From: Bacilli bacterium
GTDB taxonomy: Bacteria > Bacillota_I > Bacilli_A > RFN20 > CAG-826
Assembly (NCBI GenBank): GCA_041669265.1
Contig: JBAYBM010000003.1
Coordinates: 14,103 to 78,102 of the forward strand
Direction of reading: 5' to 3'
Length of the DNA: 64,000 bases
Positions 1-44,450 of this stretch are shown piece after piece. How positions within the stretch are numbered: the first letter of the stretch is position 1; each line of letters opens with the position of its first letter. The notes beneath the pieces were generated by a model that did not search any database, was not told the DNA's origin, and was given only the letters and a program-made list of their open reading frames with translations. A program made the position numbers and the translations under genes.

Positions 1-589
1 TACTGTTCCAGCACTAATAATACAATTCTTTGAAGTCTCCAATCCTTTCATTATTATACATCTTGCACAAATCCAATTATGCTCACCAATTAATATTGGT
101 AATGTATTATTCTTTGTAGTTTCTATACCTTCTCTTAAATCAATAATAAAATGATGATCAGAATCCATAAACATAGTATCAAAACCTACAGTTGTATTGC
201 TTCCAAATGAAATACTCTTATGACATTCAATAGAAACATTTTGTGATAGATGTACATTTTTACCAAACTTCAACTCTGCACCACTATCAACAACAATAGA
301 GTCTCCTTCAGAAATAACAAAATGTTCATCAACTATAACCCCCCCCCAAATTGCAAATAACTGTTTTCATTTTTTTACCCAAATATTGTGGGTTTGTAGA
401 AAAACCAATGTGACTAAGATGGTGATGATTAATGTTATTAATTATAAAAGAACCTTTTAATTTTAATAACTTAACATTTCTAGCAATTAAAACCAATGGG
501 CGAAATAAAGTTTTTAATCCAAAATAATGAACATTAAACTTAATAGTTTTAAATAATGATATCTTTAATAATAATTTGAATCTTTTCAT
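1..589 (-). CDS. Hexapeptide-repeat (LbH) sugar O-acetyltransferase. The N-terminal reading frame (ATG at 587-589 overlapping the upstream TGA; internal Met at 368-370, MKTVICNLGGG) is out of frame with the LbH body (VIVDEHFVISEGDSIVVDSGAELKFGKNVHL...IGEHNWICARCIIMKGLETSKNCIISAGTV) because of a G9 tract. Partial at the window start; phase-variable or pseudogene
   Basis: Translating the minus strand of 1-340 in the frame after the poly-G gives typical left-handed beta-helix acetyltransferase sequence. The ORF-track 86-aa ORF 329..589 ends GGGYS* directly after the G9 run. The ATGA overlap with the upstream GT gene suggests co-translation from 589. Confidence 0.5.
339..347. repeat. Homopolymeric C9 tract (G9 on the coding strand) inside the 5' coding region of the acetyltransferase; the only C/G homopolymer longer than 5 in the window
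   Basis: Read directly: aactataaccccccccccaaattgc at 331-353. Removing one G (8 G) would fuse MKTVICNLGG to VIVDEHF... in frame. Confidence 0.9.
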
Positions 590-1776
590 AAAAATATCTC
601 CATATAAATTGATATCAACTTAGTCTCATTTGAAGTGTTGCTTTCAAAAACAAAATCATGTATTGAATCTATACTCTTTAAATACTTTAAAAGTTCGCTA
701 ATAGATGATGCTTTATATACAAATCCATTAAGGCCATCAACTATATGTTCTTTAGCAGCACAACAATCAGACACTATACAAGGAATATGAGAACTTAACA
801 TTTCAGGAACTGTTAACGGAGAAACCTCATACCATATTGATGGAAATACAAGAGCTTTTACTTTTGGTAAAATTTCTTCTATTTGATCTTTTTCTAACCA
901 CCCTAAAAACTCAATATTAGGATATTTCTTTTCTAATTCCTGTCTTTGTTCTCCATCTCCAATTACTATACCTTTATAACGACCTAATGTTATTGCTTCA
1001 CAAAAATCTACTACCCCTTTTTCTTTAGTTATTCTACCCATATACAAAAAATATTCTTTATTACTAATACCATTAGATATATATTTAAATTTATCTATTT
1101 CATTAGGATAATAATAATAATTGGCATTTGGATAATATTTTGATATAACATCCTTACTAAGTTTAGATAAATAAATAAAGTTTTCATTATCTTTTAAGTA
1201 TTTTTTTAACCTATTAGTTCTTATTACACGCCATACTTTTTGTAGATAATTTCTTTTATCACAATTACAGAATTTACATTTAACACTTAAAGCTTTATAT
1301 TTACAAATTTCATATTTCTTATAATTTAAGAACCCACCATTAGGACAACATGTAAAATAATCATGTAAAGTAATAACACGTTTAAAACCTAATTCATTAA
1401 TGGCTTTAAATATAGAACAAGATAAAGAATGGCTCCATCCTTGAATATGAATCATTGTATCTTTATTTGAAAAATCCTTTAAAAATAACTTAAGATTTTT
1501 ATAAACTTTTTTATTAAAAATTCCTGAAAAGAATGTATCTATCATTGTTCTATGATTTATATCATTAAGATTTAAACATTTAATATTTACTTTGGATTTA
1601 ATAAGTTCTTCACATATAGGACCACTACCACAATAATAAAAAACATTCAAATTATCTATTTTAGATAAACTAATAGCATTATTAATAGCAACTTTAGCAG
1701 CTCCGCCATTAATATAACCATAATCATAGATAATTATTATATTTTTTATATTATTCATAAAATTATTTGTCTCCAA
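586..1776 (-). CDS. Glycosyltransferase family 4 (GT-B fold)
   Basis: 396 aa; C-terminal E-x7-E region YEVSPLTVPEMLSSHIPCIVSD; the GRITKEKG...VIGDGEQRQELEKK pattern is typical of GT4 retaining transferases. Confidence 0.8.
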   Translation of the reverse strand: METNNFMNNIKNIIIIYDYGYINGGAAKVAINNAISLSKIDNLNVFYYCGSGPICEELIKSKVNIKCLNLNDINHRTMIDTFFSGIFNKKVYKNLKLFLKDFSNKDTMIHIQGWSHSLSCSIFKAINELGFKRVITLHDYFTCCPNGGFLNYKKYEICKYKALSVKCKFCNCDKRNYLQKVWRVIRTNRLKKYLKDNENFIYLSKLSKDVISKYYPNANYYYYPNEIDKFKYISNGISNKEYFLYMGRITKEKGVVDFCEAITLGRYKGIVIGDGEQRQELEKKYPNIEFLGWLEKDQIEEILPKVKALVFPSIWYEVSPLTVPEMLSSHIPCIVSDCCAAKEHIVDGLNGFVYKASSISELLKYLKSIDSIHDFVFESNTSNETKLISIYMEIFL

Positions 1777-2953
1777 CTACATTCATTTTGTTATAAATAC
1801 TTATAACATTTTCATTAAATTCCTTTTCAGAAAAAAGTTTTTCACTTCTTTCTTTAGCACCCTTTGATAATTTATTATATAACTCTTCATCATTTACTAA
1901 TTTCATTATATATTCACCATATTGTTTACTGTTTTTATTTTGTGCTTCTAATCCTGTTTCATTATTAATTGATACCCAATTAACTCCAGATCCTAAAATA
2001 GTAAATGTTACGGTAGGTTTTGCAAAATACATAGCTTCTGCTAAAGATATACCAAATGCTTCATTTCTTGTAATTGAAGGGAAAGTAAAAATATCACATG
2101 CTAATAAATATGAATTAATATCATCTTCACTTAATTTACCTACAAAATAAATATTATTATATTTACTAGCTTGTTTTTTAAGTTCATCTGTTAATGGACC
2201 ACTTCCACCAATAATAATATCTACTTTATCTCTATCAATATATTCATTAGATTCAATTAAATATTTAAGTCCTTTATATTCAACATGTCTTCCAAAGAAG
2301 AAACATATTTTTTTATTTTTATGTTCTTCTTTTATTTCGTTAGATTTCTTTATAATGTCTTCAGTCAATATAGTTCTTTCTTTACCAATACAAGAAGGTA
2401 ATATTTCTATATTTCCTTTATAGTATGGTAAATAATCAGTATCTTTTAAATAAGAAGGAGAAGTAGCAATAACTATATCTGCTCTATTTAACAAATCTTT
2501 ATTTTGTTTAACAAATAATTGTTTTAGTAACTTTTGTTTAATTATATCAGCATGCCAATGTAATATAAATTTTCCCTTATAATGTAATTTCTTTAAATAT
2601 TTTAAAACATAATTTGCTGCATATGGATCAGGATAATGAAAATGAATAATATCAGGATTAAAATCTACTAATATCTTCTTTAAAATCTTCCCATAATTCT
2701 TTGCTAAAGGTTGAGAAGCAACTATTTTTTGTACACCTACTCTATAAACAGTAACTCCATCAATAATTTCTTTTACATCCTTTTTAGTAGAATTAAAAGC
2801 TATTACTTCTACATCATATTTATTAGTAGATTCTAAAAAAGATGAAATATCACAACATGTAGTTTCTATTCCACCAATATAAGGGGGATATCTTTTAGAT
2901 ATTTGTAATACTTTAATCTTGTTACCCATAAAACTAAAAGAACCTTTCTTCAA
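1763..2953 (-). CDS. Glycosyltransferase family 4
   Basis: 396 aa; N-terminal KRYPPYIGGIETTCCDIS, then GRHVEYKG...IIGGSGPLTDELKK and FPSITRNEAFGISLAEAM (E-x7-E); 14-nt overlap with the downstream GT. Confidence 0.8.
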   Translation of the reverse strand: MKKGSFSFMGNKIKVLQISKRYPPYIGGIETTCCDISSFLESTNKYDVEVIAFNSTKKDVKEIIDGVTVYRVGVQKIVASQPLAKNYGKILKKILVDFNPDIIHFHYPDPYAANYVLKYLKKLHYKGKFILHWHADIIKQKLLKQLFVKQNKDLLNRADIVIATSPSYLKDTDYLPYYKGNIEILPSCIGKERTILTEDIIKKSNEIKEEHKNKKICFFFGRHVEYKGLKYLIESNEYIDRDKVDIIIGGSGPLTDELKKQASKYNNIYFVGKLSEDDINSYLLACDIFTFPSITRNEAFGISLAEAMYFAKPTVTFTILGSGVNWVSINNETGLEAQNKNSKQYGEYIMKLVNDEELYNKLSKGAKERSEKLFSEKEFNENVISIYNKMNVVGDK

Positions 2954-3584
2954 GCATTAAACATAAACAATGATATATTGGTAAATGATATTCTTGTACT
3001 ATAAAAGTTTCACTACTAGGAGCTTTAATAGTAATATCAGAAAGAGCAGATAATTTACTATCCTTTTCTCCAGTTAAACCTATTACTTTCATTCCTTTAG
3101 CTTTTGCTACTATTGCAGCATTAATAATATTTTTAGAATTTCCTGAAGTTGAAATTCCTAAAAATACATCACTCTTATTACCTAATATACTTAATTGTTG
3201 AGCAAAAGTATATAATCCACCATCTTTAACATCATTAATAAAAGCAGTATTTAATCCTTGATGTGAATCTAACGCTATAACAGGGAATCCTTTTTGTAAT
3301 TTGGTAGCTATTTCACTACCTAATTCCTTATTAGTTTTAATTAAATCTTCTTCAAATTCCTTATCAATAGGTCTTCTTTTTTTAAAGCCTTTCATTAATT
3401 CACCTACTATATGTTCACTATCACTACAAGATCCACCATTACCAGCTATTAATAATTTATTACCATTAGTAAAACAATCTACTAATATAGTAAATGCTTT
3501 ATTAATATCATCTTTACAACACTTTAAAGCAGGATATCTTTTTATAAGAGTTTCTACATTATATATAAAGTTTTCATCTTCCAT
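2934..3584 (-). CDS. gmhA: D-sedoheptulose-7-phosphate isomerase (SIS domain)
   Basis: 216 aa; LLIAGNGGSCSDSEHIVGELMKGF and GISTSGNSKNIINA SIS motifs. Confidence 0.8.
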   Translation of the reverse strand: MEDENFIYNVETLIKRYPALKCCKDDINKAFTILVDCFTNGNKLLIAGNGGSCSDSEHIVGELMKGFKKRRPIDKEFEEDLIKTNKELGSEIATKLQKGFPVIALDSHQGLNTAFINDVKDGGLYTFAQQLSILGNKSDVFLGISTSGNSKNIINAAIVAKAKGMKVIGLTGEKDSKLSALSDITIKAPSSETFIVQEYHLPIYHCLCLMLEERFF

Positions 3585-3585
3585 A

Positions 3586-4896
3586 TTAGTTATCTCCTTT
3601 TAGTATTATATCTACTGCTTCATTTAAATCTTTAGCATAATAAGTAGGTTTATTTTTACAATCTTTTTTATCACCTAAAAATATTGTATTACATCCACCA
3701 TTAATTCCACATAAAATATCATTATTACCATCTCCAATAAACCAAGATTTCTTTAAATCAATATTAAAATCATTTTGAGCTTTTATTAACATTCCAATTT
3801 TAGGTTTTCGACATTCACAATCAATTTTAAGTTCAGGTATTTCTCCTTTAAATCCTTTATCAGGATGATGTGGACAATAATATATTTTATCTAAATATGC
3901 TCCACTATTTCCAAGTAAAGTTTCCATTTTGTTATGGATATTTTTAAGTTCAGTAAAACTTACTTCACCTCGAGCTACTACTGGTTGATTAGTTACTACT
4001 ATTGCTAAATATCTACTTCTATTAATCTTCGAGATAGCTTCACTTACTCCATCAATTAAATTAAAATCATCTATATTAGTTAAGAAACCTACATATTTAT
4101 TAATAGTACCATCTCTATCTAAGAAGATAGCTCTTTGTTTATTTCTCAAACTCTTATCTTTTACTATTCCATTACTAAAATCATTAGAAACACTATTATA
4201 TCTTTCTGGAGTACCCATATCTTTAATGTATTCAGAAGATTGATAAGCATACATTTTATCCGTGTTTGCTAATGGTTTTAAAATATCTTTATCTAAATCT
4301 ACTATTGGGTTAGTAGTATTAATATTATCTAATACTAATGGAGATACTATATGTAATCCAGCATTCACTTTATTTTGATACCATGTAGGATGTATATCAT
4401 TTTTACCAATCCAAGATAATACTTCATCATCATTATTAGTAATTATGATACTGCTATCAAATGGATGAGAATTAGGATGAGTAAATAAGGTTACTAATCC
4501 TTTCTTTTCTTGATGAAATTTTACAAACTTATTTAAATCTACATCAAATATAGAATCAGCATTAATTAGTAAGAAATCTTCTTTTAATTGATCTTTAATT
4601 TTAAATAATGCTCCAGCATTACCTAATGGTTCATTTTCTTCATAGTAAGATATATGAACTCCAAAAGGTTTATTAGTAATTGGAGATACTTTACTGCCAT
4701 CTCCAAAATAATTAATTATAATATCTTTTAAATAGTTAACAGTAATAATAAGGTCAACAAAACCTTGTTCTTTTAAACAATATATTTCTCTTTCTAAAAC
4801 AGGCATACCATCAATTTGTATCATTGGTTTTGGTATATCTTTATTTATAGAAGAGATTCTAGTTCCTTTTCCTCCAGCCATTATTACTGTAATCAT
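3586..4896 (-). CDS. Bifunctional D-glycero-alpha-D-manno-heptose-1-phosphate guanylyltransferase (HddC-like nucleotidyltransferase) fused to a D,D-heptose-1,7-bisphosphate phosphatase (GmhB-like HAD)
   Basis: N-terminus MITVIMAGGKGTRISS is a sugar-phosphate nucleotidyltransferase. C-terminus AIFLDRDGTINKY...VVTNQP...YYCPHHPDKG...CECRKPKIGM...GDGNNDI is a GmhB/HisB-type HAD phosphatase with a Zn-binding Cys/His cluster. Confidence 0.7.
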   Translation of the reverse strand: MITVIMAGGKGTRISSINKDIPKPMIQIDGMPVLEREIYCLKEQGFVDLIITVNYLKDIIINYFGDGSKVSPITNKPFGVHISYYEENEPLGNAGALFKIKDQLKEDFLLINADSIFDVDLNKFVKFHQEKKGLVTLFTHPNSHPFDSSIIITNNDDEVLSWIGKNDIHPTWYQNKVNAGLHIVSPLVLDNINTTNPIVDLDKDILKPLANTDKMYAYQSSEYIKDMGTPERYNSVSNDFSNGIVKDKSLRNKQRAIFLDRDGTINKYVGFLTNIDDFNLIDGVSEAISKINRSRYLAIVVTNQPVVARGEVSFTELKNIHNKMETLLGNSGAYLDKIYYCPHHPDKGFKGEIPELKIDCECRKPKIGMLIKAQNDFNIDLKKSWFIGDGNNDILCGINGGCNTIFLGDKKDCKNKPTYYAKDLNEAVDIILKGDN

Positions 4897-4903
4897 ATTT
4901 ATA

Positions 4904-5917
4904 TTAACCTTCTACACTTGAATCGTAATCAAAGTTCTCTGGAGTATAATAAATAACTCTTGTTCCACTTCTTTCAAATTTAAAAGGAACTTCCATTAAA
5001 TTACTTAAAGCCTTTCTTACATTATCTTGCTTATCTTTAGTTACATAAAATAAGAGGAATCCACCTCCACCAGCCCCAAGAAGTTTTCCTCCTAAGGCAC
5101 CTGCTTTAATAGCTTTAGTATATAAACTATCAATTGAATCAGTAGTAATTTCACTACCTGTTTGACGTTTTAATTTCCATGTTTCATCAAGTAATCTACC
5201 AAAATCATCTAAATCAATTGTTTTATCTTCTAATACTAATTGAGCTTTATCTACTAACTCTAACATCTTATCTAATTCTTTTTTCTTTTCTTCTAATGTT
5301 GATTCAGTTGATTTTTGTATTTCAGCTGAAAATCTAGTAAATCCTGTAAAGAATAACATTAAATTATCATTTAATTGATTCTTTCTTTCAGGAGAAATAA
5401 TAATAGGATTAACATGATATCCATTGGCATCAAAATCAATTCTATTTAATCCACCAAAAGAAGCAGCTATTTGATCTTGCCATCCTCCAGCTTCATTACA
5501 TAATGTTCTTTCTAAATATATTGCATCATTTGCTAATTGTTTTTTAGATGCATATTTACCTTTTAAACAATAAAAAGCATTTAATAAACCTACAGCAAAA
5601 GTAGAAGATGTACCTAAACCTGTTCTCGCAGGTAAATCTGCATCATAAGAAATATGTAATTCTTTCATATCTAACATCTTCATAGCGTTTCTAACCATTG
5701 GATGTTCTATTTGATCTACAGCACTAACTCTTTCCATCTTAGAATATGTAATTTCAGTAGTATAATTAAAAAACCTTGGTAAATGTCTCACAGTAACATA
5801 AACATATTTATCAAATGTAGTAGAGATAACAGCACCTCTACCTTGTTTAAAATATAATGGTAAATCAGTACCACCACCAAAGAAACTCATTCTAAAAGGT
5901 GTTTTTGTAATAATCAT
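4904..5917 (-). CDS. hddA: D-glycero-alpha-D-manno-heptose 7-phosphate kinase (GHMP kinase)
   Basis: 337 aa; MIITKTPFRMSFFGGGTDLPLYF plus the GHMP motif PARTGLGTSSTFAVGLLNA. Confidence 0.75.
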   Translation of the reverse strand: MIITKTPFRMSFFGGGTDLPLYFKQGRGAVISTTFDKYVYVTVRHLPRFFNYTTEITYSKMERVSAVDQIEHPMVRNAMKMLDMKELHISYDADLPARTGLGTSSTFAVGLLNAFYCLKGKYASKKQLANDAIYLERTLCNEAGGWQDQIAASFGGLNRIDFDANGYHVNPIIISPERKNQLNDNLMLFFTGFTRFSAEIQKSTESTLEEKKKELDKMLELVDKAQLVLEDKTIDLDDFGRLLDETWKLKRQTGSEITTDSIDSLYTKAIKAGALGGKLLGAGGGGFLLFYVTKDKQDNVRKALSNLMEVPFKFERSGTRVIYYTPENFDYDSSVEG

Positions 5918-13378: not shown

Positions 13379-14329
13379 TTACTTTTGATAAAGTTTTAAA
13401 GAATTTATTTCAAAATGAGAATATTTATATACATTAGAATTACCAGTGGTATCTTTTTTAAAGTAAGATGCTCCAGTTACTACTTCTCCACTAGTAGGAG
13501 TACTTTCACTATAAAAAGTACCATCTAAATTAGAGAATTCTATACTAATAAAATATATTTGTTTTATTCCTGTAGCAAAGGTAGTAGATATTAATTCAGT
13601 ATTTGTATCATCATATAATATCTCTCCTGTAGTAGATCCATCTACTACTGTACCCTTATTATCAGTAGTATTAGTTTTAGTATCAGTATCTAATTTATCA
13701 GTATAATTAATAACGCCAGTTCCTGTTCTACCACTACTAGGATAAGTAACAAAATCATTAGCTACTACAGTACTTGTAGTAGTTGTATCACTAGTGTCAT
13801 AACTAGTAACATATAAATTTATAGCATCACTTAATTCTACTCTACGAGTAGTAACAGTATCATCATTACCACTAAGAACATAATTTAAATTAGTAGTAAT
13901 ATTATCAAAATAATTAGAGAAAGAAGCTAAAGATAAAGCTACATCTATATCATTAAAAGTAGTAGTTACTTCTAAAGCAAAAGTATATCTTGCTCCTGGT
14001 ACCATATTTGATAAATCTGTATGAGTATTACTAGCACTTAAAAAATCTGTATCATAATCAGTTACTGTTTTAATATTAGTAGAATTTTCTTCATATTGCC
14101 CTGGTTCAATATAACCATGATATTCATTACTACTATTATAATTATTTTTATAATATTTTAAGTTATAGGTAATTTCATTAGAGGTAGCAATAATATTACT
14201 TACTGTAACACTAGCTTTATTAGTAGAAGTAAACCAAGCATAGGTAGAACTTATAGTAGCTAAAAAAACAAAGCCTATTTGAACTAAAGCTAATGCAATA
14301 ATTTTAGATTGTTTTTTAACGCTCTTCAT
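13379..14329 (-). CDS. Secreted T/S/N/D-rich protein with a TasA/camelysin-like (SipW-cognate class) signal peptide
   Basis: N-terminus KIIALALVQIGFVFLATISSTYAWFTSTNKASV resembles the TasA-type leader (hydrophobic core then T-Y-A-x-F-T-D/S); good SD AGGAGGAT upstream. Confidence 0.5.
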   Translation of the reverse strand: MKSVKKQSKIIALALVQIGFVFLATISSTYAWFTSTNKASVTVSNIIATSNEITYNLKYYKNNYNSSNEYHGYIEPGQYEENSTNIKTVTDYDTDFLSASNTHTDLSNMVPGARYTFALEVTTTFNDIDVALSLASFSNYFDNITTNLNYVLSGNDDTVTTRRVELSDAINLYVTSYDTSDTTTTSTVVANDFVTYPSSGRTGTGVINYTDKLDTDTKTNTTDNKGTVVDGSTTGEILYDDTNTELISTTFATGIKQIYFISIEFSNLDGTFYSESTPTSGEVVTGASYFKKDTTGNSNVYKYSHFEINSLKLYQK

Positions 14330-14707: not shown

Positions 14708-17700
14708 TTATATTGTCCAGAAAGCAGGTAAATTATTAGTGTCATAATACCAATATCTTCTACTTTCAAGTAAGGTATCACTTGGTTTAGTAGCTGAATA
14801 ATATGCTGTTGCTTTAGCCCCGCTATTCCAAGAAGTAGTCCAAGCATGGGTACCACCTTCTTTATGCATATTATAAAATGTATCATAACTTTCAGAGACA
14901 TATATATAAGCATTAGAAGCGGCAAATGAATTAGCGTTTACTGTTAAATTAGTAGTGTCACTAGGAAGAATAAATCCTGTTAAAGAAGTACATCCACTAA
15001 ATGCACTATCACCTATATAAAGGATGCTACCTGTTTTATCAGTATTTGTAGCAAAATTAACTATAGTAGCATTATCTACTACGCTACCAGTATTCTCATC
15101 ATTAGCATATCTAGTTTTCATATTAGTAATACCACTACAACCACTAAATATAGAATTACCTAAATATTTAATAGTAGATGGTAAAGTTATAGTAGCTAAA
15201 TTAACACATGGATTGAATGCCCATCCATACATACTTTCTAGTCCATAATTTAAATCTAAGGAAGTTAAAGCAGTATCTCCTTTAAGCATATCCATACCTG
15301 TTATGTCACAAGTAGAAATAGTTTTTAAAGTAGTTAAAGTACGAGGTACACACATTAAGACTTGTCCATTACCTCCAGCTGTAACGTTTCTAGCAGCATT
15401 AATATAGAAACAACTATTATAAGAAGATAAATAAGTACCTACTACTTCATCAGTATTAGATATAGTACCTAAAGAATACCCATTACAACCACTAACATTA
15501 TAAAAGACATTTAAACGAGCATTTGGTGAGTTATCTGGAGTAGTAGTTGCTTTATATCCACTTGGGAAATATATATCTACTGTAGTAGGTAATACTACAT
15601 ATGTTAACTTAGTTCCCATACATCCATTTTGCCCTATATAACCTAAAGAAGTAGGAAATACATAATTATTATTATAAGTAGTACCACTATACCCTACTAC
15701 TTGAGCTAAATTATTACATGCATATAGTCCAGCATAACCGATAGTTACTATAGTATTTGGTAACTCTAATTTATTCATATAAGAATTACCTGCAAAAGCA
15801 CCTTGACCAATTTCAGTAACATTGAAGGTTCCTTCATCTACTGTTTCAGTAGCATTAACTTTTAATGTTTTATTTGAATAGGTAGTACTTTTAATATATC
15901 CAGTAATAGTAATATGAGCGGTAGTAGGTTCATGAGTAGTTCCAGAGACATGTCCTCCTGTATCATAACTATCTACCGTACCGCTATCATAAATATAATA
16001 ATATCCTTGATCAGTATTAGAGTGGATATTAGTTTCTGCACCAATGCCAAAATATATACCATTAACATCAGCGTTAAATCCTGCATTATTATAACCAGTA
16101 CCATTACCTTCAGCACTAGTAGATAATTTATAATTTGTGGCACTATAATTAGTTTTAGTACCTTCTAAATAGATTGATAATTTACTACCGATAGCAATAT
16201 TAGAATTTACCTTTTTAATTCTTAAAGGAATATATAAATATGGAAGTTTGGTACAATAAGAAAATACATTATTATATAATTCATTAATCCAATTACCCCA
16301 ATTTATAGTAGTTAAATTAGAACAACTACTAAAACAACTATCACCAATATTAGTTAATGAACTTGTAGGTGATAAAGCATCTGGAGCAGTAACAAAAGTT
16401 AAAGTTGTAATAAACTTACAATTATTAAAAGCTTGATTACCAATATGAGTAGTATAAGTAGAACTAGATGTATCTAATAATGAATAAGGTATTTTAAGTT
16501 CAAATCCATCAGCATTAGTGGCTCCATTACCATCATTAATCTTAAAAGCACCTTCAGCTATTGTAGTTAAACTACATGTTCCATCTTCAGCTCCAGCAAA
16601 ATATAATTCTTTTAAAGCATATAAGTTATTAAAAGCCCATTTACTTATTGTAGTAACGCTAGAAGGTATCGTTAAAGTAGTTACTTTTTTATTATTATAG
16701 AAAGCAGTTTCTCCAATAGTAAGTAAACCTTCATTTAAGGTTATAGCAGTCATATTTGTACAACCACTAAAAGCATCTTTTTCAATAAATGTTAAATCAG
16801 TATTAGTAGTAATAGAAGTTATATTAGTATTATTATAGAATGCTTTTTCATATATACCTTGTACTACATATCCTCCTAAAGTATTAGGAATAGTAACTGC
16901 TCCACCATTTCCATTATACCCATAGATATATGAATAAGTAGTATCTCCATCATTTTTAGACATATATAAACAACTATTTTCAATACCAATATCAACGTAT
17001 CCATAATCAATTTGAATATAAATATTAGAATCAGTAGCACTACCTGTAGAATTACCTATTCTATTCCAATCAGTAGTATATGTATCAGGCACTGCATCAT
17101 CTTGCATATATATAGTAGCGGATTTAATACCTCTAAAAGCCCATTTTTCAACAGTAGTTACACTACTTGGAAGATGGATAAGGTTTACACTAGTACAATT
17201 AAAGAAAGCATTTTCTCTTATTATTTTAGTAGTAATAGGCATTAATAATCTATTTAGATATTTACAATAAGCAAAAGCACTTGCTCCTACTTCAATTAAA
17301 CCAGTAGGAAGAGCAAAAAAGTTTTTAGCATCTGCAGCATATATTAAAGTAGTACATCCACTAAAAGCATGATCCCAAATTTTAGTATATGTAGCATCAG
17401 TTTCGTAATATAAATATGTTAAATTAGAGCAATTCTCAAATGTTCCAGGAAATATTTGATTCTTATCATTAGTATAATCACTGTCAGAATCTACTACTAA
17501 TTTTGGTAATATAAAAGTTACCATTTTATTATTATTAGCGAATGCTTGTTTACCTATAGTAGTTAAATAATCAGGCCAGTCTGAAATATTAGTTATATCT
17601 GCACCATTAAAACCATTATTAGCAATCGAAGTAATTGTATAAGTTGTACCATTACTAACATAATAATTAGGTAAGTCTATATATCCATTAGTAGCATTAT

Positions 17701-17983
17701 CTAAAGATGTACCTTTAGCGACCGCACAAGTTCCATCGCTAGCAGTTATATATTCTAAGCCTTCAGTATAAGTATCACCTGTATAGTCATTATTATATCT
17801 AGATACTCCATATTTAGTGAATTTACGATTAGGATCACCATCTTTAGATACTTTATCAAGTTCTTCCATAGTTTCATCGGTATCAGTATTTATATTATTG
17901 TTACAAGAACTTGTTAAAGATACTATACCTAATATAGTTAATATACATAAGAATCTTTTTAAGTTAATATTAAATAATTTCAT
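14708..17983 (-). CDS. Large surface lipoprotein with BspA-type leucine-rich repeats (LRR_5-like)
   Basis: Lipobox-like ILGIVSLTSSC. Many repeats of the IP..V..I...AF..C..L form, e.g. TIPNTLGGYVVQGIYEKAFYNNTNITSITTN...IEKDAFSGCTNMTAITLNEGLLTIGETAFYNNKKVTTLTIPSSVTTISKWAF; 1091 aa. Confidence 0.7.
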   Translation of the reverse strand: MKLFNINLKRFLCILTILGIVSLTSSCNNNINTDTDETMEELDKVSKDGDPNRKFTKYGVSRYNNDYTGDTYTEGLEYITASDGTCAVAKGTSLDNATNGYIDLPNYYVSNGTTYTITSIANNGFNGADITNISDWPDYLTTIGKQAFANNNKMVTFILPKLVVDSDSDYTNDKNQIFPGTFENCSNLTYLYYETDATYTKIWDHAFSGCTTLIYAADAKNFFALPTGLIEVGASAFAYCKYLNRLLMPITTKIIRENAFFNCTSVNLIHLPSSVTTVEKWAFRGIKSATIYMQDDAVPDTYTTDWNRIGNSTGSATDSNIYIQIDYGYVDIGIENSCLYMSKNDGDTTYSYIYGYNGNGGAVTIPNTLGGYVVQGIYEKAFYNNTNITSITTNTDLTFIEKDAFSGCTNMTAITLNEGLLTIGETAFYNNKKVTTLTIPSSVTTISKWAFNNLYALKELYFAGAEDGTCSLTTIAEGAFKINDGNGATNADGFELKIPYSLLDTSSSTYTTHIGNQAFNNCKFITTLTFVTAPDALSPTSSLTNIGDSCFSSCSNLTTINWGNWINELYNNVFSYCTKLPYLYIPLRIKKVNSNIAIGSKLSIYLEGTKTNYSATNYKLSTSAEGNGTGYNNAGFNADVNGIYFGIGAETNIHSNTDQGYYYIYDSGTVDSYDTGGHVSGTTHEPTTAHITITGYIKSTTYSNKTLKVNATETVDEGTFNVTEIGQGAFAGNSYMNKLELPNTIVTIGYAGLYACNNLAQVVGYSGTTYNNNYVFPTSLGYIGQNGCMGTKLTYVVLPTTVDIYFPSGYKATTTPDNSPNARLNVFYNVSGCNGYSLGTISNTDEVVGTYLSSYNSCFYINAARNVTAGGNGQVLMCVPRTLTTLKTISTCDITGMDMLKGDTALTSLDLNYGLESMYGWAFNPCVNLATITLPSTIKYLGNSIFSGCSGITNMKTRYANDENTGSVVDNATIVNFATNTDKTGSILYIGDSAFSGCTSLTGFILPSDTTNLTVNANSFAASNAYIYVSESYDTFYNMHKEGGTHAWTTSWNSGAKATAYYSATKPSDTLLESRRYWYYDTNNLPAFWTI

Positions 17984-19377: not shown

Positions 19378-20925
19378 TTATCTAATAGTTCCATCACTGT
19401 TACGATGATCTTCTCTTAAGAATTCCATAAAGACATTACCTGTTACTGGAGTATAAGCATAAACATTAACTCCATTAGGACCATCTTCAATTTGAGCAAT
19501 AGTATTATCACCAAGAATAGTATTATAAATATTAGTAAAATTAACTACACCAGTATCACCTGAATTATCAAACATTTCAGATGGGTTAAATCCATTATTA
19601 ATATTAACTCCTATTTCTCCTATTAATCCTGTTTCAGATTCACTATTAATATAACTATATGTAGTAGAATCACTACTATTTAAATATATTCCACCCTTAT
19701 TCTGTTCATTATATACATATGAATTTAATACTGTTCCATCAGTATGGCCTACTAAATACCCTACATTATTCTTATGTGAATAATTAGTATATTTCTCATC
19801 TTCATCACTACTTAAATAATCTAAATATACTTTCATAGTTATAGTAGGAGTATCATTACTAATATTATTAAAGAATTTAACTAAATATGTAGATAATACT
19901 TTAGCATACGATATTGAATTAATAGATTTAGATGCAATTAAAGATATTCTAAAATCTAATTCTCCTTTATCGGTAGTAATAAAAGTATTGTTATTATCTG
20001 TATTATCTATTAAAGCATTGTAATCTATATCAATTGTATTATTAGTTTTATCTACTAATAAAATATTACTCGAAGTACTCTTAATATAAAATTTAGTAGA
20101 AGTATCAAAAGAAGTAGGGAAGGTAGCAGTAAAAGTTCCATCACTAATTTCCGTAGCATTAAAAGTATATGTCGAAGTACTCGTTAAATCATTATATAAG
20201 GTAGTATTATTAAATTTTAATATAGCATCATTTGCATAAATAGAATCAGTAACATCTTTACTTCCATCCGTTAATTCAGGATATAATTCTGCTAATGAAC
20301 TAGTATTATATCCATCGTTATATACTTTTAAATTAGAAAATAAACAATTCTCTACTTTAGCTCCTGAATCTACATAACCAAATACTCCTACATCTTCTGG
20401 AGAAGAATGGATTGTTAAACCTTTAATATTAATATTACTTCCATCATAGGTACCATAAAATGGAGTAGCTTCGTTACCAATAGATAATAATGTTTTAGAA
20501 TAATCACTCATATCTAGAGTAGTAGTATAAGAATTAGCAAGTACTCCATCATCAACTGTAGAATCACTTTTAAATACATATAAATTAGTATCAGTAGAAT
20601 CATTTTTAGTATTTAAAGGATATCCGATTTGGAAATGAGCTTTGCTGGAATCACTAAATAATCCTAAATTTTGTAATCTAGTAAGATTATAAAAATGAAT
20701 TGGTCTAGTAATAATATAAGGTTTAGTAGATGTACCATCACCAATATATCCATCACAATTATAGAAATATTCTCTTAATCCTATATCTCCACCTAAATCT
20801 AAATTCTCTTCTTTTGTTATTGAAGTATAGTAAGCATAAGTAACACTAGTTAATAAAGTAGTTAACGTTATTACAGGGAATAATCCTTTTAATAATATAT
20901 GTCTTAAAGTTAATATCTTCTTCAT
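19378..20925 (-). CDS. Secreted T/S/N/Y-rich protein with a TasA/camelysin-like signal peptide; probably the N-terminal 515 aa of a ~970-aa protein interrupted by an in-frame TAA
   Basis: N-terminus LRHILLKGLFPVITLTTLLTSVTYAYYTSITKEENLDLG; ends ...MEFLREDHRNSDGTIR then TAA. Confidence 0.55.
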   Translation of the reverse strand: MKKILTLRHILLKGLFPVITLTTLLTSVTYAYYTSITKEENLDLGGDIGLREYFYNCDGYIGDGTSTKPYIITRPIHFYNLTRLQNLGLFSDSSKAHFQIGYPLNTKNDSTDTNLYVFKSDSTVDDGVLANSYTTTLDMSDYSKTLLSIGNEATPFYGTYDGSNINIKGLTIHSSPEDVGVFGYVDSGAKVENCLFSNLKVYNDGYNTSSLAELYPELTDGSKDVTDSIYANDAILKFNNTTLYNDLTSTSTYTFNATEISDGTFTATFPTSFDTSTKFYIKSTSSNILLVDKTNNTIDIDYNALIDNTDNNNTFITTDKGELDFRISLIASKSINSISYAKVLSTYLVKFFNNISNDTPTITMKVYLDYLSSDEDEKYTNYSHKNNVGYLVGHTDGTVLNSYVYNEQNKGGIYLNSSDSTTYSYINSESETGLIGEIGVNINNGFNPSEMFDNSGDTGVVNFTNIYNTILGDNTIAQIEDGPNGVNVYAYTPVTGNVFMEFLREDHRNSDGTIR

Positions 20926-23559: not shown

Positions 23560-25902
23560 TTATGAAATTTGAGCGAAAGTTTTAGTATTAGAATCGAAAA
23601 CAGAAATGAATTTATAGGAATTACCACCTATATCTCCACCACATAAATAAACACTCGTACCTACAGAAGCACAAGCTATACTATATCTTGGGCTAATTGT
23701 TAAATCAACTAAAGTAAGTCTATCATTTTGTGTATTAAAATCATATATTGTATCAACTACACCAGACCCATCATAACCACCAAAAATATAAATATGAGTC
23801 CCTACGACGGCATTACTATGATTATATAAACTTAAAGTAGGAGTAGTTAAAACTTCTTCAGTAACTACATCACTCACAAATGAATATACTTTGATTTCAT
23901 TTATAATGCTACTTGCTCCATGACCACCAAAAACATAGAATTTACCATTAACAGCAGAACTTGACATTTGCTCTCCTGCTGTAGACATGACTGTATCATT
24001 AGTAACTTTTTCAATAGAAAAATCCTCGTTAACTTTAAAACGTTGTATTGTATTTAATTTTACAGAGCCATCATAACCACCAAATAATAATATATCAGTA
24101 CCATAAATAGATGCAGTAGCATTATATGCAGCAACATTCATAGTAACTCCTGTATCACTTAATGTCTTAGTTTCAGTATTAAAGTCATATATTGTATTAA
24201 GACAAACAGAATCAGAATTACCGCCAAATATATAAATATGGGTTTTATAAGCAACACTAGAAGGCTTATACATTGGAACAGGAAGAGTTGCATCTAATTT
24301 AGTGAGAGTCCCTGTAATTGAGTTTATATCATATATTGTATCTAATTTATGTCCAAGACTATCTTTTTTTCCACCAAATACATAAACATGGTTTCCAACA
24401 GATTCACAAGCAGCCTTAGAAACTTTAGTTTCAAAGTCATCAACAATAGGTAAGACAGTAAAATTAGCTTGAACTATAAATCCATTTTCAATCATTGTTG
24501 TATTATATTCAAAATATTCATCTTCATTATAAGTAACTTTATCATCTCCAGTTACTCCATCATATTTTTCTACATTATTAATTAATACATTCTTTAAACT
24601 ATATCCAGCATCTGGATAAAATTTAAAAGATATAGCGTCACCTACAAGGGCACTTCCTAAACTAGGAACTACATAACCATGTTCACTTGGAAGAATAGTA
24701 GAAGCATAGGCAGTTTTTCCATCTTCTCCATCTGTTCCATCGGCTCCAGGATTACCTTGAGGTCCTTGAGGACCAATAGGTCCTGTAAAACCAGTACCCC
24801 CTTTAAAGTTACCTTTATTTACCCAAGTATCACTTTCTTTTACATAATAATCCCATGTAGAAGTATTAATATAAGAATCTCCATTTTTACCTAATGTATC
24901 TGAAGGTATTGTAGTACCAGTTAAAACGCTAGATCCATCACTACCTTTAATATTACCTTTAGCAGTACCCCAAGTTCCACTTGCTTTTACATAATAATCC
25001 CAAGTTGAAGTATTTATATAAGAATCTCCATCTTTACCTAATGTATCTGAAGGTATTGTAGTACCTGTTAAAACACTAGCTCCATCAGCTCCTTTTAGAT
25101 TAATAACTTTACTTCCCCAACCACTAGAAGTTTTAATATAAAAATCCCAGTTAGAAGTATCAATATAAGAATCACCTATATTACCTAAAGTTGAAGCAGG
25201 TATTCCACTTCCAGTTCTTAAAGAGAAACCATCAGCACCTTTAATTTTTCCTAAGCTGTCTCCCCAACCAGAACTTGTTTTAATATAGAAATCCCAAGTT
25301 GAAGTATCAACATATGAATCACCTATATTTCCTAACGTAGAAGCAGGTATTCCACTTCCAGTTAAGAAAGATTTTCCATCTTCTCCAGCAGCTCCAACAG
25401 CACCTACGGCTCCTGTGGCTCCTGTTGATCCATCACTTCCTGAACTTCCTTTAAAACTACCTTTATTAACCCATGTTCCATTTTCTTTAACATAATATAC
25501 CCATTTTGTTAAATCAATATAGGAATCATTATCATTTCCTAAAGATGTATCTGGAGTGCCTTTACCTGTAAGAATAGAAGTTCCATTCTTACCAGCTTCA
25601 CCAACACTACTATCACCTTTAATATTACCAACCTTAGTCCATACATCATCACCTTTAATATAAAAGTCCCAAGTAGAAATATTAATATAAGAATCTCCAT
25701 TACTACCTAAACTTGTAAGTGGTACATCAGTACCTGTTAAAACTGAATAGCCGTTTAAACCATTAATGCCATCAGTTCCATCTACCCCATCAGTTCCATC
25801 AACACATTGATTTTCTGTGTTTCCACAAGAAATTAAACTAGTAGGAAGTACTAAGAGAATACTTAATAAACTTGCTGCTTTAAAAAAATTATGTTTTTTC
25901 AT
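23560..25902 (-). CDS. Mosaic surface lipoprotein: collagen-like Gly-X-Y runs, eight tandem ~60-aa modules, a Listeria-Bacteroides-type repeat and a C-terminal Kelch beta-propeller
   Basis: Lipobox LPTSLISCG. GXY runs DGTDGVDGTDGINGLNG, GSSGSDGSTGATGAVGAVGAAGEDGKS, GPIGPQGPQGNPGADGTDGEDGKT. Eight modules of the LTG.G.P...LG..GDSY..TSTWD.Y.K form. Kelch-like VYVFGG, IYIFGG, ILLFGGYDGS, FYVFGGHGAS, IYIFGGYDGSG, VYLCGG. Confidence 0.7.
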   Translation of the reverse strand: MKKHNFFKAASLLSILLVLPTSLISCGNTENQCVDGTDGVDGTDGINGLNGYSVLTGTDVPLTSLGSNGDSYINISTWDFYIKGDDVWTKVGNIKGDSSVGEAGKNGTSILTGKGTPDTSLGNDNDSYIDLTKWVYYVKENGTWVNKGSFKGSSGSDGSTGATGAVGAVGAAGEDGKSFLTGSGIPASTLGNIGDSYVDTSTWDFYIKTSSGWGDSLGKIKGADGFSLRTGSGIPASTLGNIGDSYIDTSNWDFYIKTSSGWGSKVINLKGADGASVLTGTTIPSDTLGKDGDSYINTSTWDYYVKASGTWGTAKGNIKGSDGSSVLTGTTIPSDTLGKNGDSYINTSTWDYYVKESDTWVNKGNFKGGTGFTGPIGPQGPQGNPGADGTDGEDGKTAYASTILPSEHGYVVPSLGSALVGDAISFKFYPDAGYSLKNVLINNVEKYDGVTGDDKVTYNEDEYFEYNTTMIENGFIVQANFTVLPIVDDFETKVSKAACESVGNHVYVFGGKKDSLGHKLDTIYDINSITGTLTKLDATLPVPMYKPSSVAYKTHIYIFGGNSDSVCLNTIYDFNTETKTLSDTGVTMNVAAYNATASIYGTDILLFGGYDGSVKLNTIQRFKVNEDFSIEKVTNDTVMSTAGEQMSSSAVNGKFYVFGGHGASSIINEIKVYSFVSDVVTEEVLTTPTLSLYNHSNAVVGTHIYIFGGYDGSGVVDTIYDFNTQNDRLTLVDLTISPRYSIACASVGTSVYLCGGDIGGNSYKFISVFDSNTKTFAQIS
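24810..25750. repeat. Intragenic tandem DNA repeats (~180 bp x ~8) encoding the 60-aa modules of the lipoprotein
   Basis: Recurring blocks such as ccaagttgaagtat.aa.atatgaatc / tctgaaggtattgtagtacc visible on the plus strand; boundaries approximate. Confidence 0.55.
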
Positions 25903-26091
25903 ATGATATATCCCTCTTATTACATTATAGTTGTAAAAAATAAATATTAAAGAATTTAATTCCAGTCAGCTGACCTATAATCTTAAGTGTTCAGTTTAAT
26001 TAGTGCGACAAAATAGTCGCCCTTTTCTTTTGGACTTTTTAAAAAGGGGTACAAAAGGGATATTTCACGGGGTACTTTTCGTTTCGATAAT

Positions 26092-26117
26092 TAAAAAAAT
26101 GAGCACTGTTTGCTCAT
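26092..26117 (-). terminator. Hairpin ATGAGCA-CTGTT-TGCTCAT followed on the minus strand by a U7 tract; second terminator downstream of rplQ
   Basis: Read directly; A7 at 26093-26099 on the plus strand. Confidence 0.45.
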
Positions 26118-26162
26118 TATTTCAATTTCTGGCGGAGAAGGAGGGAATTCCTTCTAATCAAA

Positions 26163-26193
26163 CCAAACAAAAAGGATTGGTTTTCACCAATCC
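26163..26193 (-). terminator. Rho-independent terminator of the ribosomal/rpoA/rplQ transcript (GGAUUGGU-GAAA-ACCAAUCC then UUUUUGUUUGG)
   Basis: 8-bp stem and T-rich tail ~25 nt after the rplQ stop. Confidence 0.6.
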
Positions 26194-26214
26194 TATTTAG
26201 TACAAATGTAATTA

Positions 26215-43316: not shown

Positions 43317-44450
43317 TTATTTTAAAATATCATTTCTCCAAATAGGAATTATAGAATCATAGGAATACTTTTTACTTTCTTCAAAAGCACTTCTTTTTAA
43401 TAGTTTTAATTTATCTTTGTCAGCAAAGATTTCCATGATTTTATTTGCAAAATCTACTGCATTTCGCTTGTCGATTACAAATCCATCCATTCCTTCATTA
43501 CATAATTCTTTAGCAGCAACACCCCAATTAGTAGATACAAAAGGCATTGAAAAAGCTGTTGCTTCTCCTCTAATTAATGGGCATCCTTCATATGTACTAG
43601 ATATTAATAATAAATCATTTGATAAATAAGCTTTTTCAATATCTTTTGACATTGGATGTAAAACTACATTATTTTCTAAATGATGCTCATTAATATAAGA
43701 TTTCATTTTATCTTCTAAAGAACCACTACCATACATATTTAAAGTGAATTCAAAATCTCTTTCATGTAAAACATTAGCAATACTTAAAGCAAATAAAGGA
43801 TCTTTTTGTGGATGAAATCTACCACAAAACATTATTGAATTATTATGGTAATCTAAATTTAAAGTAGGTGGGAAACGAATAGGATTATAAATATATACTG
43901 AATTATCTTTTAGTTTTTTATGTTTTTTAATTACTTCATCATAACAACCTTTTGTTAAGAATATATATTTATCAGGTTTACGGAAATAACCTAAATATAA
44001 TTGCATAGATTTAGAGTTGAAAATATCTTCATCAAAATGAAAATGGAAATATACATTTCTTCCTTTTGGAGCATAATCATAACTATCTAAACTAGAAGCA
44101 ATATATAAATCATCTTTACACATTCTATTTTTATTTAATTTTCTATAATGATGACGATGGAATATAAAATAATATAGTGTTCTCCATATTAAACCTAATG
44201 TTTTAAAATATTGATGTTTTTCATTATATATTCTTTTATATTCATCAAATCGAGCAATATCATTAGGTACATTTAAACATACTACTTTTAATTTTGGATT
44301 TAATTCATATTGAATTGGCCCACTAATTTTAGAGGTACAAATAAGAGTAATATCATAATAATCACAAAGATGATTCATGATATCGATTGTAACCATTTCA
44401 GTACCACCAATCTTATCTAATTGTTGTACGCACCAAAAGATTTTTTTCAT
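43317..44450 (-). CDS. Glycosyltransferase family 4, paralog A
   Basis: MKKIFWCVQQLDKIGGTEMVTIDIMNHL; E-x7-E STYEGCPLIRGEATAFSMPFVSTNWG; ~45-50 % identical by eye to 47958..49088. Confidence 0.75.
   Translation of the reverse strand: MKKIFWCVQQLDKIGGTEMVTIDIMNHLCDYYDITLICTSKISGPIQYELNPKLKVVCLNVPNDIARFDEYKRIYNEKHQYFKTLGLIWRTLYYFIFHRHHYRKLNKNRMCKDDLYIASSLDSYDYAPKGRNVYFHFHFDEDIFNSKSMQLYLGYFRKPDKYIFLTKGCYDEVIKKHKKLKDNSVYIYNPIRFPPTLNLDYHNNSIMFCGRFHPQKDPLFALSIANVLHERDFEFTLNMYGSGSLEDKMKSYINEHHLENNVVLHPMSKDIEKAYLSNDLLLISSTYEGCPLIRGEATAFSMPFVSTNWGVAAKELCNEGMDGFVIDKRNAVDFANKIMEIFADKDKLKLLKRSAFEESKKYSYDSIIPIWRNDILK

Follow-up and report, generated by a model that had tools for sequence, protein, structure and literature searches.

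A predicted surface lipoprotein of an uncultured Bacilli bacterium joins a segmented collagen-like stalk to a Kelch propeller

Introduction

What kind of protein results when collagen-like Gly-X-Y tracts, an array of repeated modules and a Kelch propeller are placed behind a lipoprotein signal, and what might it do at the cell surface? The question is raised by a gene in a 64,000-nucleotide stretch of DNA (the window; positions 14,103 to 78,102 of contig JBAYBM010000003.1, assembly GCA_041669265.1) from a Bacilli bacterium of the GTDB lineage RFN20, CAG-826. An earlier note, made from the sequence alone, had described the product as a mosaic lipoprotein, and this architecture is borne out by our analysis: from the N- to the C-terminus we found a lipobox, a stalk of Gly-X-Y tracts and six modules (residues 27-397), a neck and a Kelch head. 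The order of the parts points to a surface lipoprotein built much like a phage tail fibre, with a segmented collagen-like stalk that carries a six-bladed Kelch propeller. With moderate confidence, we regard it as a surface-exposed fibre-like adhesin or ligand-binding protein that would be lipid-anchored and most likely homotrimeric.

The open reading frame is genuine; it has 12 TGG codons, TGA does not occur in frame, and genetic code 11 reads well in the window. The G+C content of the gene is ordinary and matches that of the rest of the window (28.5 % for the window as a whole). RpoA, whose gene is a neighbour, reaches no more than 79 % identity with any entry of the protein collection; its closest named sources are metagenome-assembled genomes labelled Bacillales (70 %), Erysipelotrichaceae (70 %) and Candidatus Onthovivens (67 %), which places the host among the uncultured low-GC Bacilli. 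The gene and the parts of its product, given in amino acids (aa), are as follows (HMM, hidden Markov model; i-E, independent E-value; AF2, AlphaFold2; pLDDT, predicted local distance difference test).

23560-25902, minus strand: lipoprotein open reading frame, 780 aa, start ATG, stop TAA
25825..25902, minus strand: lipoprotein signal peptide, residues 1-26 (n-region MKKHNFFK, hydrophobic core, lipobox L-I-S-C, Cys26)
25744..25797, minus strand: Gly-X-Y run 1, residues 36-53, 6 triplets (GTDGVDGTDGINGLNGYS), proline-free
25615..25743, minus strand: module 1, residues 54-96 (module HMM i-E 6e-20; AF2 four-strand beta unit, pLDDT >88)
25447..25575, minus strand: module 2, residues 110-152 (module HMM, AF2)
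25369..25449, minus strand: Gly-X-Y run 2, residues 152-178, 9 triplets, proline-free
24799..25368, minus strand: modules 3-6, residues 179-222, 228-271, 277-320 and 326-368, encoded by a 147-nt tandem DNA repeat
24712..24801, minus strand: Gly-X-Y run 3, residues 368-397, 10 triplets with 4 Pro (GGTGFTGPIGPQGPQGNPGADGTDGEDGKT)
24454..24711, minus strand: neck, residues 398-483, all-beta (AF2 pLDDT ~90)
23566..24411, minus strand: six-bladed Kelch beta-propeller, residues 498-779 (Pfam, AF2, Foldseek), with blades at approximately 498-539, 548-587, 596-638, 647-685, 696-735 and 743-779

Kelch head and lipid anchor

The product is a bona fide Kelch-domain protein. Pfam PF24681 matched with 130.4 bits (cut-off 50, E 8e-38) and Kelch_1 (PF01344) with 79.4 bits (cut-off 20.1) over six stretches, and the blade motifs VYVFGG, IYIFGG, ILLFGG, FYVFGG, IYIFGG and VYLCGG number exactly six. 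In the AF2 model of residues 391-780 (pLDDT 87, predicted template modelling score (pTM) 0.77) the head consists of 24 strands in six groups of four. Foldseek placed it among six-bladed Kelch domains with E-values of 5e-20 to 1e-16, template modelling (TM) scores of 0.85-0.88 and root-mean-square deviations of 2.2-2.7 Å, and the matches include KLHL12, KLHL17, Keap1, LZTR1 and the designed SAKe6 proteins. The propeller read by the earlier note, which had proposed domain scans and structure prediction as a check, was thus recovered by both, as six blades.

A lipobox follows the pattern [LVI][ASTVI][GAS]C, lies among the ~35 N-terminal residues and stands behind a positively charged n-region and a hydrophobic core. 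The N-terminus of the protein, as read from its sequence, has the charged n-region, the hydrophobic core and the lipobox (MKKHNFFKAASLLSILLVLPTSLIS-C26) of such a signal, with Lys2/Lys3 and LISC conforming to the rule, in agreement with the lipoprotein claim of the earlier note. Furthermore, in every relative recovered with its start codon the lipobox stands immediately N-terminal to the Gly-X-Y tract; in L001, L003, L006, L007, L009 and L010 the lipobox passes at once into Gly-X-Y. Lipidation at Cys26 and exposure at the surface would be expected from this signal.

Collagen-like stalk and neck

The stalk was searched for collagen runs defined as at least six uninterrupted Gly-X-Y triplets, the definition used in a 2025 survey (PMC11923368). 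Runs of 6, 9 and 10 triplets were found. Among 20,000 shuffles of residues 27-400, only 207 (~1 %) contained even one run of six or more triplets. Three runs had been claimed previously and the first two stood at the stated 6 and 9 triplets, whereas the third counts 10 triplets and not 8. Taken in order, the linkers of the stalk comprise 6 triplets, one irregular segment (residues 97-109 ahead of module 2, with only 3 in-phase triplets), 9 triplets, 2 triplets in each of three linkers and finally 10 triplets. The collagen assignment of the earlier note therefore holds for the Gly-X-Y periodicity but not for the Pfam Collagen family, whose score stays below cut-off, and two of the three runs lack proline; the stalk is collagen-like by pattern, not by Pfam threshold.

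Between these tracts the module HMM finds six copies of a 43-aa core module with the consensus xLxGxGxPxxxxGxxGDxYxxTxTxDxYxKxxGxWxxxGNLKG. Modules 3-6, joined by two-triplet Gly-X-Y linkers, were matched with i-E values of 1e-19 to 1e-22 and modelled with pLDDT of 80-91, and Tandem Repeats Finder detected a period of 147 over 24813-25365, i.e. a repeat unit of 49 aa or 147 nt. The eight nearly identical modules of ~60 aa (180 bp) described before are thus to be replaced by six modules with a shorter unit, which share 35-78 % of their residues and 52-77 % of their nucleotides in pairwise comparison. In the AF2 monomer each module is four-stranded beta (pLDDT 80-96), and the module is by this prediction a folded unit.

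The module had no family match in Pfam or NCBIfam, and homologues that consist almost entirely of modules, e.g. P0055, P0042 and P0018, carry no precomputed Pfam families. Some Bacteroidota homologues are listed with PF26696, but most module-bearing proteins are without it, so that this family probably does not correspond to the module. Comparison with known structures gave several candidates below significance. A profile of 64 modules matched designed 'Cake' propellers in the PDB over an 18-residue hairpin at 4-5 bits per copy, which we discarded as a motif coincidence. The module profile also reached SGIV VP88 (PDB 8hif chain y4, residues 358-383) with an E-value of 0.11, not significant, and the same chain was ranked first by Foldseek for the stalk model with an E-value of 0.018, again not significant; no PDB entry was matched by the stalk model at E <=0.001. 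The paper on VP88 (PMC10090177) assigns it a 'crown' domain and a role as membrane anchor, and draws no connection to collagen or to an oligomeric state.

Directly after the last Gly-X-Y triplet, the neck opens with a conserved junction, TAWSNTILPS (pattern TAY/WS.TILPS), and it occupies the identical position in at least 20 homologues, which continue with different heads. The earlier note had called this region a Listeria-Bacteroides repeat. PF09479 (Flg_new) gave no match at E <=1 with the whole protein and none at E <=0.1 with the isolated domain and 18 relatives. The sister family PF18998 (Flg_new_2, divergent InlB B-repeat) matched the protein with 16.4 bits over half of the model (cut-off 23.6, E 0.009). 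The same model was matched by 12 of the 19 aligned members of the neck family, the best with 6.7e-8, while the copy in P0002 scored 21.4 bits. Since the family members match, homology of the neck to PF18998 is plausible by transitivity, and the neck is probably a divergent member of the InlB B-repeats. The domain itself is real and probably related to the sister family, while the Flg_new assignment did not stand and the PF18998 score of this copy is sub-threshold.

A family of stalk-cassette lipoproteins

The N-terminal half matched more than 739 proteins with 30-50 % identity. The module is present in all 120 stalk homologues listed, with 579 copies in total and 1-16 per protein. Relatives of the gene come from Erysipelotrichaceae and Bacilli metagenome-assembled genomes, and one of these genomes bears the label goat reticulum. 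Searches of GTDB genomes, JGI metagenomes, a set of 5.8 billion proteins and 1.84 billion representatives did not return any orthologue above ~50 % identity, and the clustered protein collection has no entry with the exact sequence.

In uncultured Bacilli of the gut and the rumen, several lipoproteins (L001, L003, L006, L007, L009, L010; P0002, P0004, P0025, P0032, P0059 and others) share the passage from lipobox to Gly-X-Y, the 43-aa module (30-50 % identity), the neck with TAWSNTILPS and a globular C-terminal head. The heads themselves differ and include DUF6273 or DUF6273-like domains, BspA-type leucine-rich repeats (LRR_5), Big_2, metallophosphatase/5'-nucleotidase and others. Because the relatives share the lipobox and Gly-X-Y start and differ in their heads, the protein can be placed, by sequence comparison, among the 'stalk-cassette' lipoproteins, a family in which the heads are exchangeable.

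A Kelch head is absent from all listed relatives that bear the neck. The earlier note had called the fusion of collagen-like and Kelch parts unusual, and in the sets that we examined only two other cases were found: P0075 among the 120 stalk relatives listed, with Kelch-type repeats, and P0452, with a module and Kelch, in the top 150 of 1.84 billion cluster representatives. Collagen was found in none of the 120 best Kelch relatives, and our literature searches returned no description of a collagen-Kelch lipoprotein architecture. Judged from these comparisons, Kelch is a rare head on a common, uncharacterised scaffold.

A second small module type, of ~35 aa and with the pattern 'GVSVVSI.KTSSDGLVDTYTI.YSDGT.S.F.VTNG', was observed within Gly-X-Y tracts of L002, L003, L007, L009, L012 and the P0082-P0118 family. 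The collagen-like tracts of stalk-cassette lipoproteins accordingly host at least two module types.

Relationship to phage proteins and genomic position

Sequence comparison gives both halves of the protein relatives in phage virion proteins. The stalk is related to the PHROG tail-fibre families phrog_3904 (2.3e-17), phrog_8745 (4.6e-10) and phrog_1806 ('collagen like minor tail', 2e-5). The module array recurs in the annotated tail fibre gp196 of Erwinia phage Hena1 (YP_009854379), with short Gly-X-Y linkers, and in tail-fibre proteins with a Peptidase_S74 chaperone domain (P0001, P0003, P0014). In addition, the array is found in giant-virus collagen-like proteins of Orpheovirus and others (Foldseek BFVD, 5e-29).

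The Kelch head matched phrog_16120, a 'virion structural protein', with 1e-16. Its closest relative, P0121 (38 % identity; L015 8001-9971), is encoded four genes after a terminase on a 44-kb phage-like contig. P0452 (L016 7470-9395; 29 % identity over the alignment) joins collagen, one module and then Kelch, and its 14.8-kb contig, with a weak Phi29_MCP capsid match, was read as phi29-like. As an observation on gut phages themselves, Kelch propellers may serve them as receptor-binding or virion-decoration domains.

These relatives raise the possibility that the gene is not a bacterial adhesin gene but a prophage- or phage-derived tail-fibre gene, or that it encodes a decoy mimicking a phage receptor-binding protein. 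The stalk relatives among PHROG tail fibres and in Hena1, and the Kelch relatives phrog_16120, P0121 and P0452 on phage contigs, speak in its favour, yet we consider it improbable. The module alternates with short Gly-X-Y segments in Hena1 gp196, PHROG 3904, 8745 and 1806 and P0452 as it does here, but these phage proteins have phage-type N-termini, are encoded in virion gene clusters and lack a signal peptide or lipobox as well as the InlB-like neck, both of which are present here. The lipoprotein signal peptide is missing from P0452 and P0121 too, and the cassette is common to a whole family of chromosomal lipoproteins.

The position of the gene also argues against a phage structural cluster. 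It adjoins the rpoA-rplQ operon, which lies upstream, and two terminator-like hairpins intervene.

26098..26194, minus strand: two terminator-like hairpins (26194-26173 and 26118-26098), 3' of rplQ

These consecutive hairpins in the spacer between rplQ and the lipoprotein gene stand ~55 nt apart and set the lipoprotein gene apart from the ribosomal-protein/rpoA operon. A PHROG search with seven further proteins, encoded on the downstream side between 10 and 23 kb of the window, gave no match. Because rplQ and rpoA adjoin the gene, these proteins on the other side are devoid of phage matches and the G+C is ordinary, the gene is, as far as its surroundings tell, chromosomal and not in a prophage.

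Trimeric fibre or flexible monomer

The homologues give information on how the module and the Gly-X-Y tracts are combined. In more than 100 of them the module sits in register within Gly-X-Y tracts of 2 to 19 triplets. The linkers between consecutive modules measure 3n+2 residues in 190 of 193 cases, and Gly occupies 98 % of the in-phase positions; from this linker length and the in-phase Gly it follows that the module is inserted strictly in register. We know of no structure other than collagen-type packing that imposes both Gly at every third position and such an in-register constraint. Judged from the homologous sequences, the Gly-X-Y periodicity is under selection.

The favoured reading is that of a trimer, on account of the in-register conservation of Gly and the trimeric company of the module, i.e. 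phage tail fibres and Peptidase_S74 proteins. After export by Sec, lipidation of Cys26 would keep the protein tethered to the outside of the membrane. The chains would then join in threes, with the Gly-X-Y tracts forming short collagen-type triple helices and the six 43-aa beta modules acting as folded in-register nodes that hold and align the chains. The 102 Gly-X-Y residues alone could span ~29 nm if fully extended. The last triple-helical run would be capped by the divergent InlB-B-repeat-like neck, which would present the Kelch propeller, three per trimer, for binding with avidity to a target, which would be a glycan or a protein carried by host mucus, by feed particles or by another cell. 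Trimerisation, formation of triple helices and ligand binding are thus inferred.

Several observations weigh against this reading. Pfam Collagen (PF01391) scored 21.8 bits with the whole protein against a cut-off of 27.2 (E 1.6e-4, best stretch 368-396); the same family is present in many homologues. Runs 1 and 2 are without proline and contain, by eye, few Lys-Gly-Asp/Glu triplets, and four linkers are just two triplets each, so that a stable triple helix would not be assured. The Gly-X-Y tracts are unstructured in the AF2 model (pLDDT <50), a monomer model that is silent on the oligomeric state. A phmmer search of the stalk against PDB sequences returned nothing meaningful, and the collagen XV trimerisation domain aligned with the stalk model with TM scores of 0.62-0.64 over 41-44 columns at an E-value of ~2, which is not significant. 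On the side of the head, a NanM-type or cyclically permuted mutarotase was rejected, TIGR03548 reaching 30.7 bits against a cut-off of 243.2.

The main rival is therefore a monomeric lipoprotein resembling 'beads-on-a-string', with Gly-X-Y as flexible spacers, the modules as independent domains (perhaps binding units) and a single Kelch head. The short, proline-poor runs and the sub-threshold Collagen score fit such a protein, AF2 folds every module confidently as a monomer, and InlB B-repeats and Kelch domains are generally known as monomers in their best-studied settings. Yet a spacer needs no Gly at each third position, whereas the homologues keep the phase of Gly and linker described above, and the array is shared with phage tail fibres and Peptidase_S74 chaperone proteins, which are trimers. 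We thus judge the monomer unlikely, and return to the trimer in what follows.

If the fibre is trimeric, the 43-aa module may tentatively be seen as a node, not described before, at which collagen triple helices trimerise and are set in register, a proposal that none of the data contradict. Bacteria, phages and giant viruses, without hydroxyproline, would in this way build long fibres from very short triple-helical segments. The module would then be a functional analogue of the trimerisation domain of multiplexins (collagen XV/XVIII), to which its fold bears a faint resemblance, and the lipoprotein would be one product of an exchange of stalks and heads between phage receptor-binding proteins and bacterial adhesins.

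Repeat-number variation

The tandem array had led the earlier note to propose a hotspot of repeat-number, that is antigenic or size, variation. The corresponding explanation, a size- or antigen-variable surface protein encoded by a contingency locus whose repeats expand and contract through slippage or recombination, is in our view very improbable. A 147-nt tandem array is indeed present, neighbouring modules share exact stretches of 24 and 33 nt (the latter being the longest exact match between any modules), and the 1-16 modules among distant homologues indicate that the copy number shifts over evolutionary time.

The repeats themselves, however, are not those of a contingency locus. Adjacent repeats have 76-77 % DNA identity with many synonymous and non-synonymous differences (11 and 11 codons, respectively, between modules 3 and 4), and because they have diverged in this way the duplications are old. 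The promoter and the 5' end are free of homopolymers and short-unit repeats. Moreover, 17 variants of another stalk-cassette family (P0082...P0118; 86-98 % identical, 948-1004 aa) show no indel in the stalk; all of their indels fall in the C-terminal head, at alignment columns 705-984, which suggests that variability in this family resides in the heads and not in the stalks. Assemblies of at least three samples contain the identical 780-aa protein, but the three carrying contigs are 100 % DNA-identical to the window and hence represent the same clone, the only form in which the gene was found. The proposed variation is thus unsupported, though not disproved, by diverged repeats and by a stalk free of indels in the variants of one other family.

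Other features of the locus

A possible promoter and ribosome-binding site (RBS) can be read in front of the lipoprotein gene.

25911-25929, minus strand: candidate -10 hexamer TATAAT (25929-25924) and RBS GAGGG (25916-25912), by eye, 5' of the ATG

The hexamer is tentative, as a promoter scan made no call there. An Rfam scan of the gene and its flanks, including the 300-nt spacer, yielded no match above noise.

Six proteins on the downstream side had no Pfam, NCBIfam or PHROG match, and none of the six was found again beside relatives of the lipoprotein gene. At 14708-17983, on the minus strand and 5.6 kb downstream of the collagen-Kelch gene, a second large surface lipoprotein is encoded; it is 1091 aa long, carries BspA-type leucine-rich repeats (PF13306, 1e-76) and has a lipobox, LTSSC, of its own. 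LRR_5 repeats of this kind also occur among the heads of the stalk-cassette relatives. The products of 13379-14329 and 19378-20925, both on the minus strand and both without Pfam, NCBIfam or PHROG match, have N-terminal hydrophobic segments ending in TYAWFTS and TYAYYTS, which we take to resemble signal peptides of the SipW/TasA type. Finally, the regions 586-5917 and 43317-44450 (minus strand) encode enzymes resembling those of heptose nucleotide-sugar synthesis, namely an HddA-like kinase and a fused nucleotidyltransferase/GmhB-like phosphatase, together with GT4 glycosyltransferases. One of the genes in these glycosyltransferase regions is weakly similar to the adhesin O-glycosyltransferases SdgA/SdgB, and a link of these genes to the glycosylation of surface proteins is possible.

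Significance and comparison with known systems

Uncultured small-genome Bacilli of the gut and rumen are known almost only from metagenomes, and the present family suggests that they build surface fibres from components also used in phage tail fibres, namely short segments resembling collagen, a small beta module and heads that can be exchanged. How collagen-like proteins that are free of hydroxyproline and interrupted manage to fold is an open question according to a 2025 survey (PMC11923368). If the module does turn out to trimerise chains in register, part of the folding of such highly interrupted proteins would be explained, and the engineering of collagen fibres could gain a compact building block.

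Cell-anchored proteins with a collagen-like stalk and a globular domain have been described as Scl1/Scl2 of Streptococcus pyogenes and BclA of Bacillus and Clostridioides (PMC8968730), and the likeness to Scl and BclA lies in this general design. An LPXTG adhesin of the Scl1/Scl2 type was considered and ruled out: the NCBIfam Scl models NF038330 and NF038329 matched weakly, far below cut-off (28.2 vs 400 and 24 vs 325 bits), and the protein ends in its Kelch domain with no C-terminal LPXTG sorting signal. In Scl a single long tract runs without interruption, a V domain at the N-terminus brings about trimerisation and an LPXTG motif anchors the C-terminus, whereas the protein studied here combines an N-terminal lipid anchor with short, module-interrupted tracts and a C-terminal head. 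With the eukaryotic Kelch proteins KLHL12, KLHL17, Keap1 and LZTR1 it shares the same six-bladed, four-stranded propeller (TM 0.85-0.88) but just 16-23 % identity, and here the propeller stands without BTB/BACK domains in a bacterial extracellular setting.

The gene adds a further member to a large unannotated family and does not represent a new kind of system. By analogy, its product may work like a phage tail fibre and, more remotely, like a collectin. Collectins, ficolins and C1q are well known for a collagen stalk that trimerises heads for avidity, and this working principle is all that they would share with the lipoprotein; their heads are non-homologous, their collagen regions are much longer and uninterrupted and their trimerisation device is another one, so that the comparison is one of analogy and not of membership.

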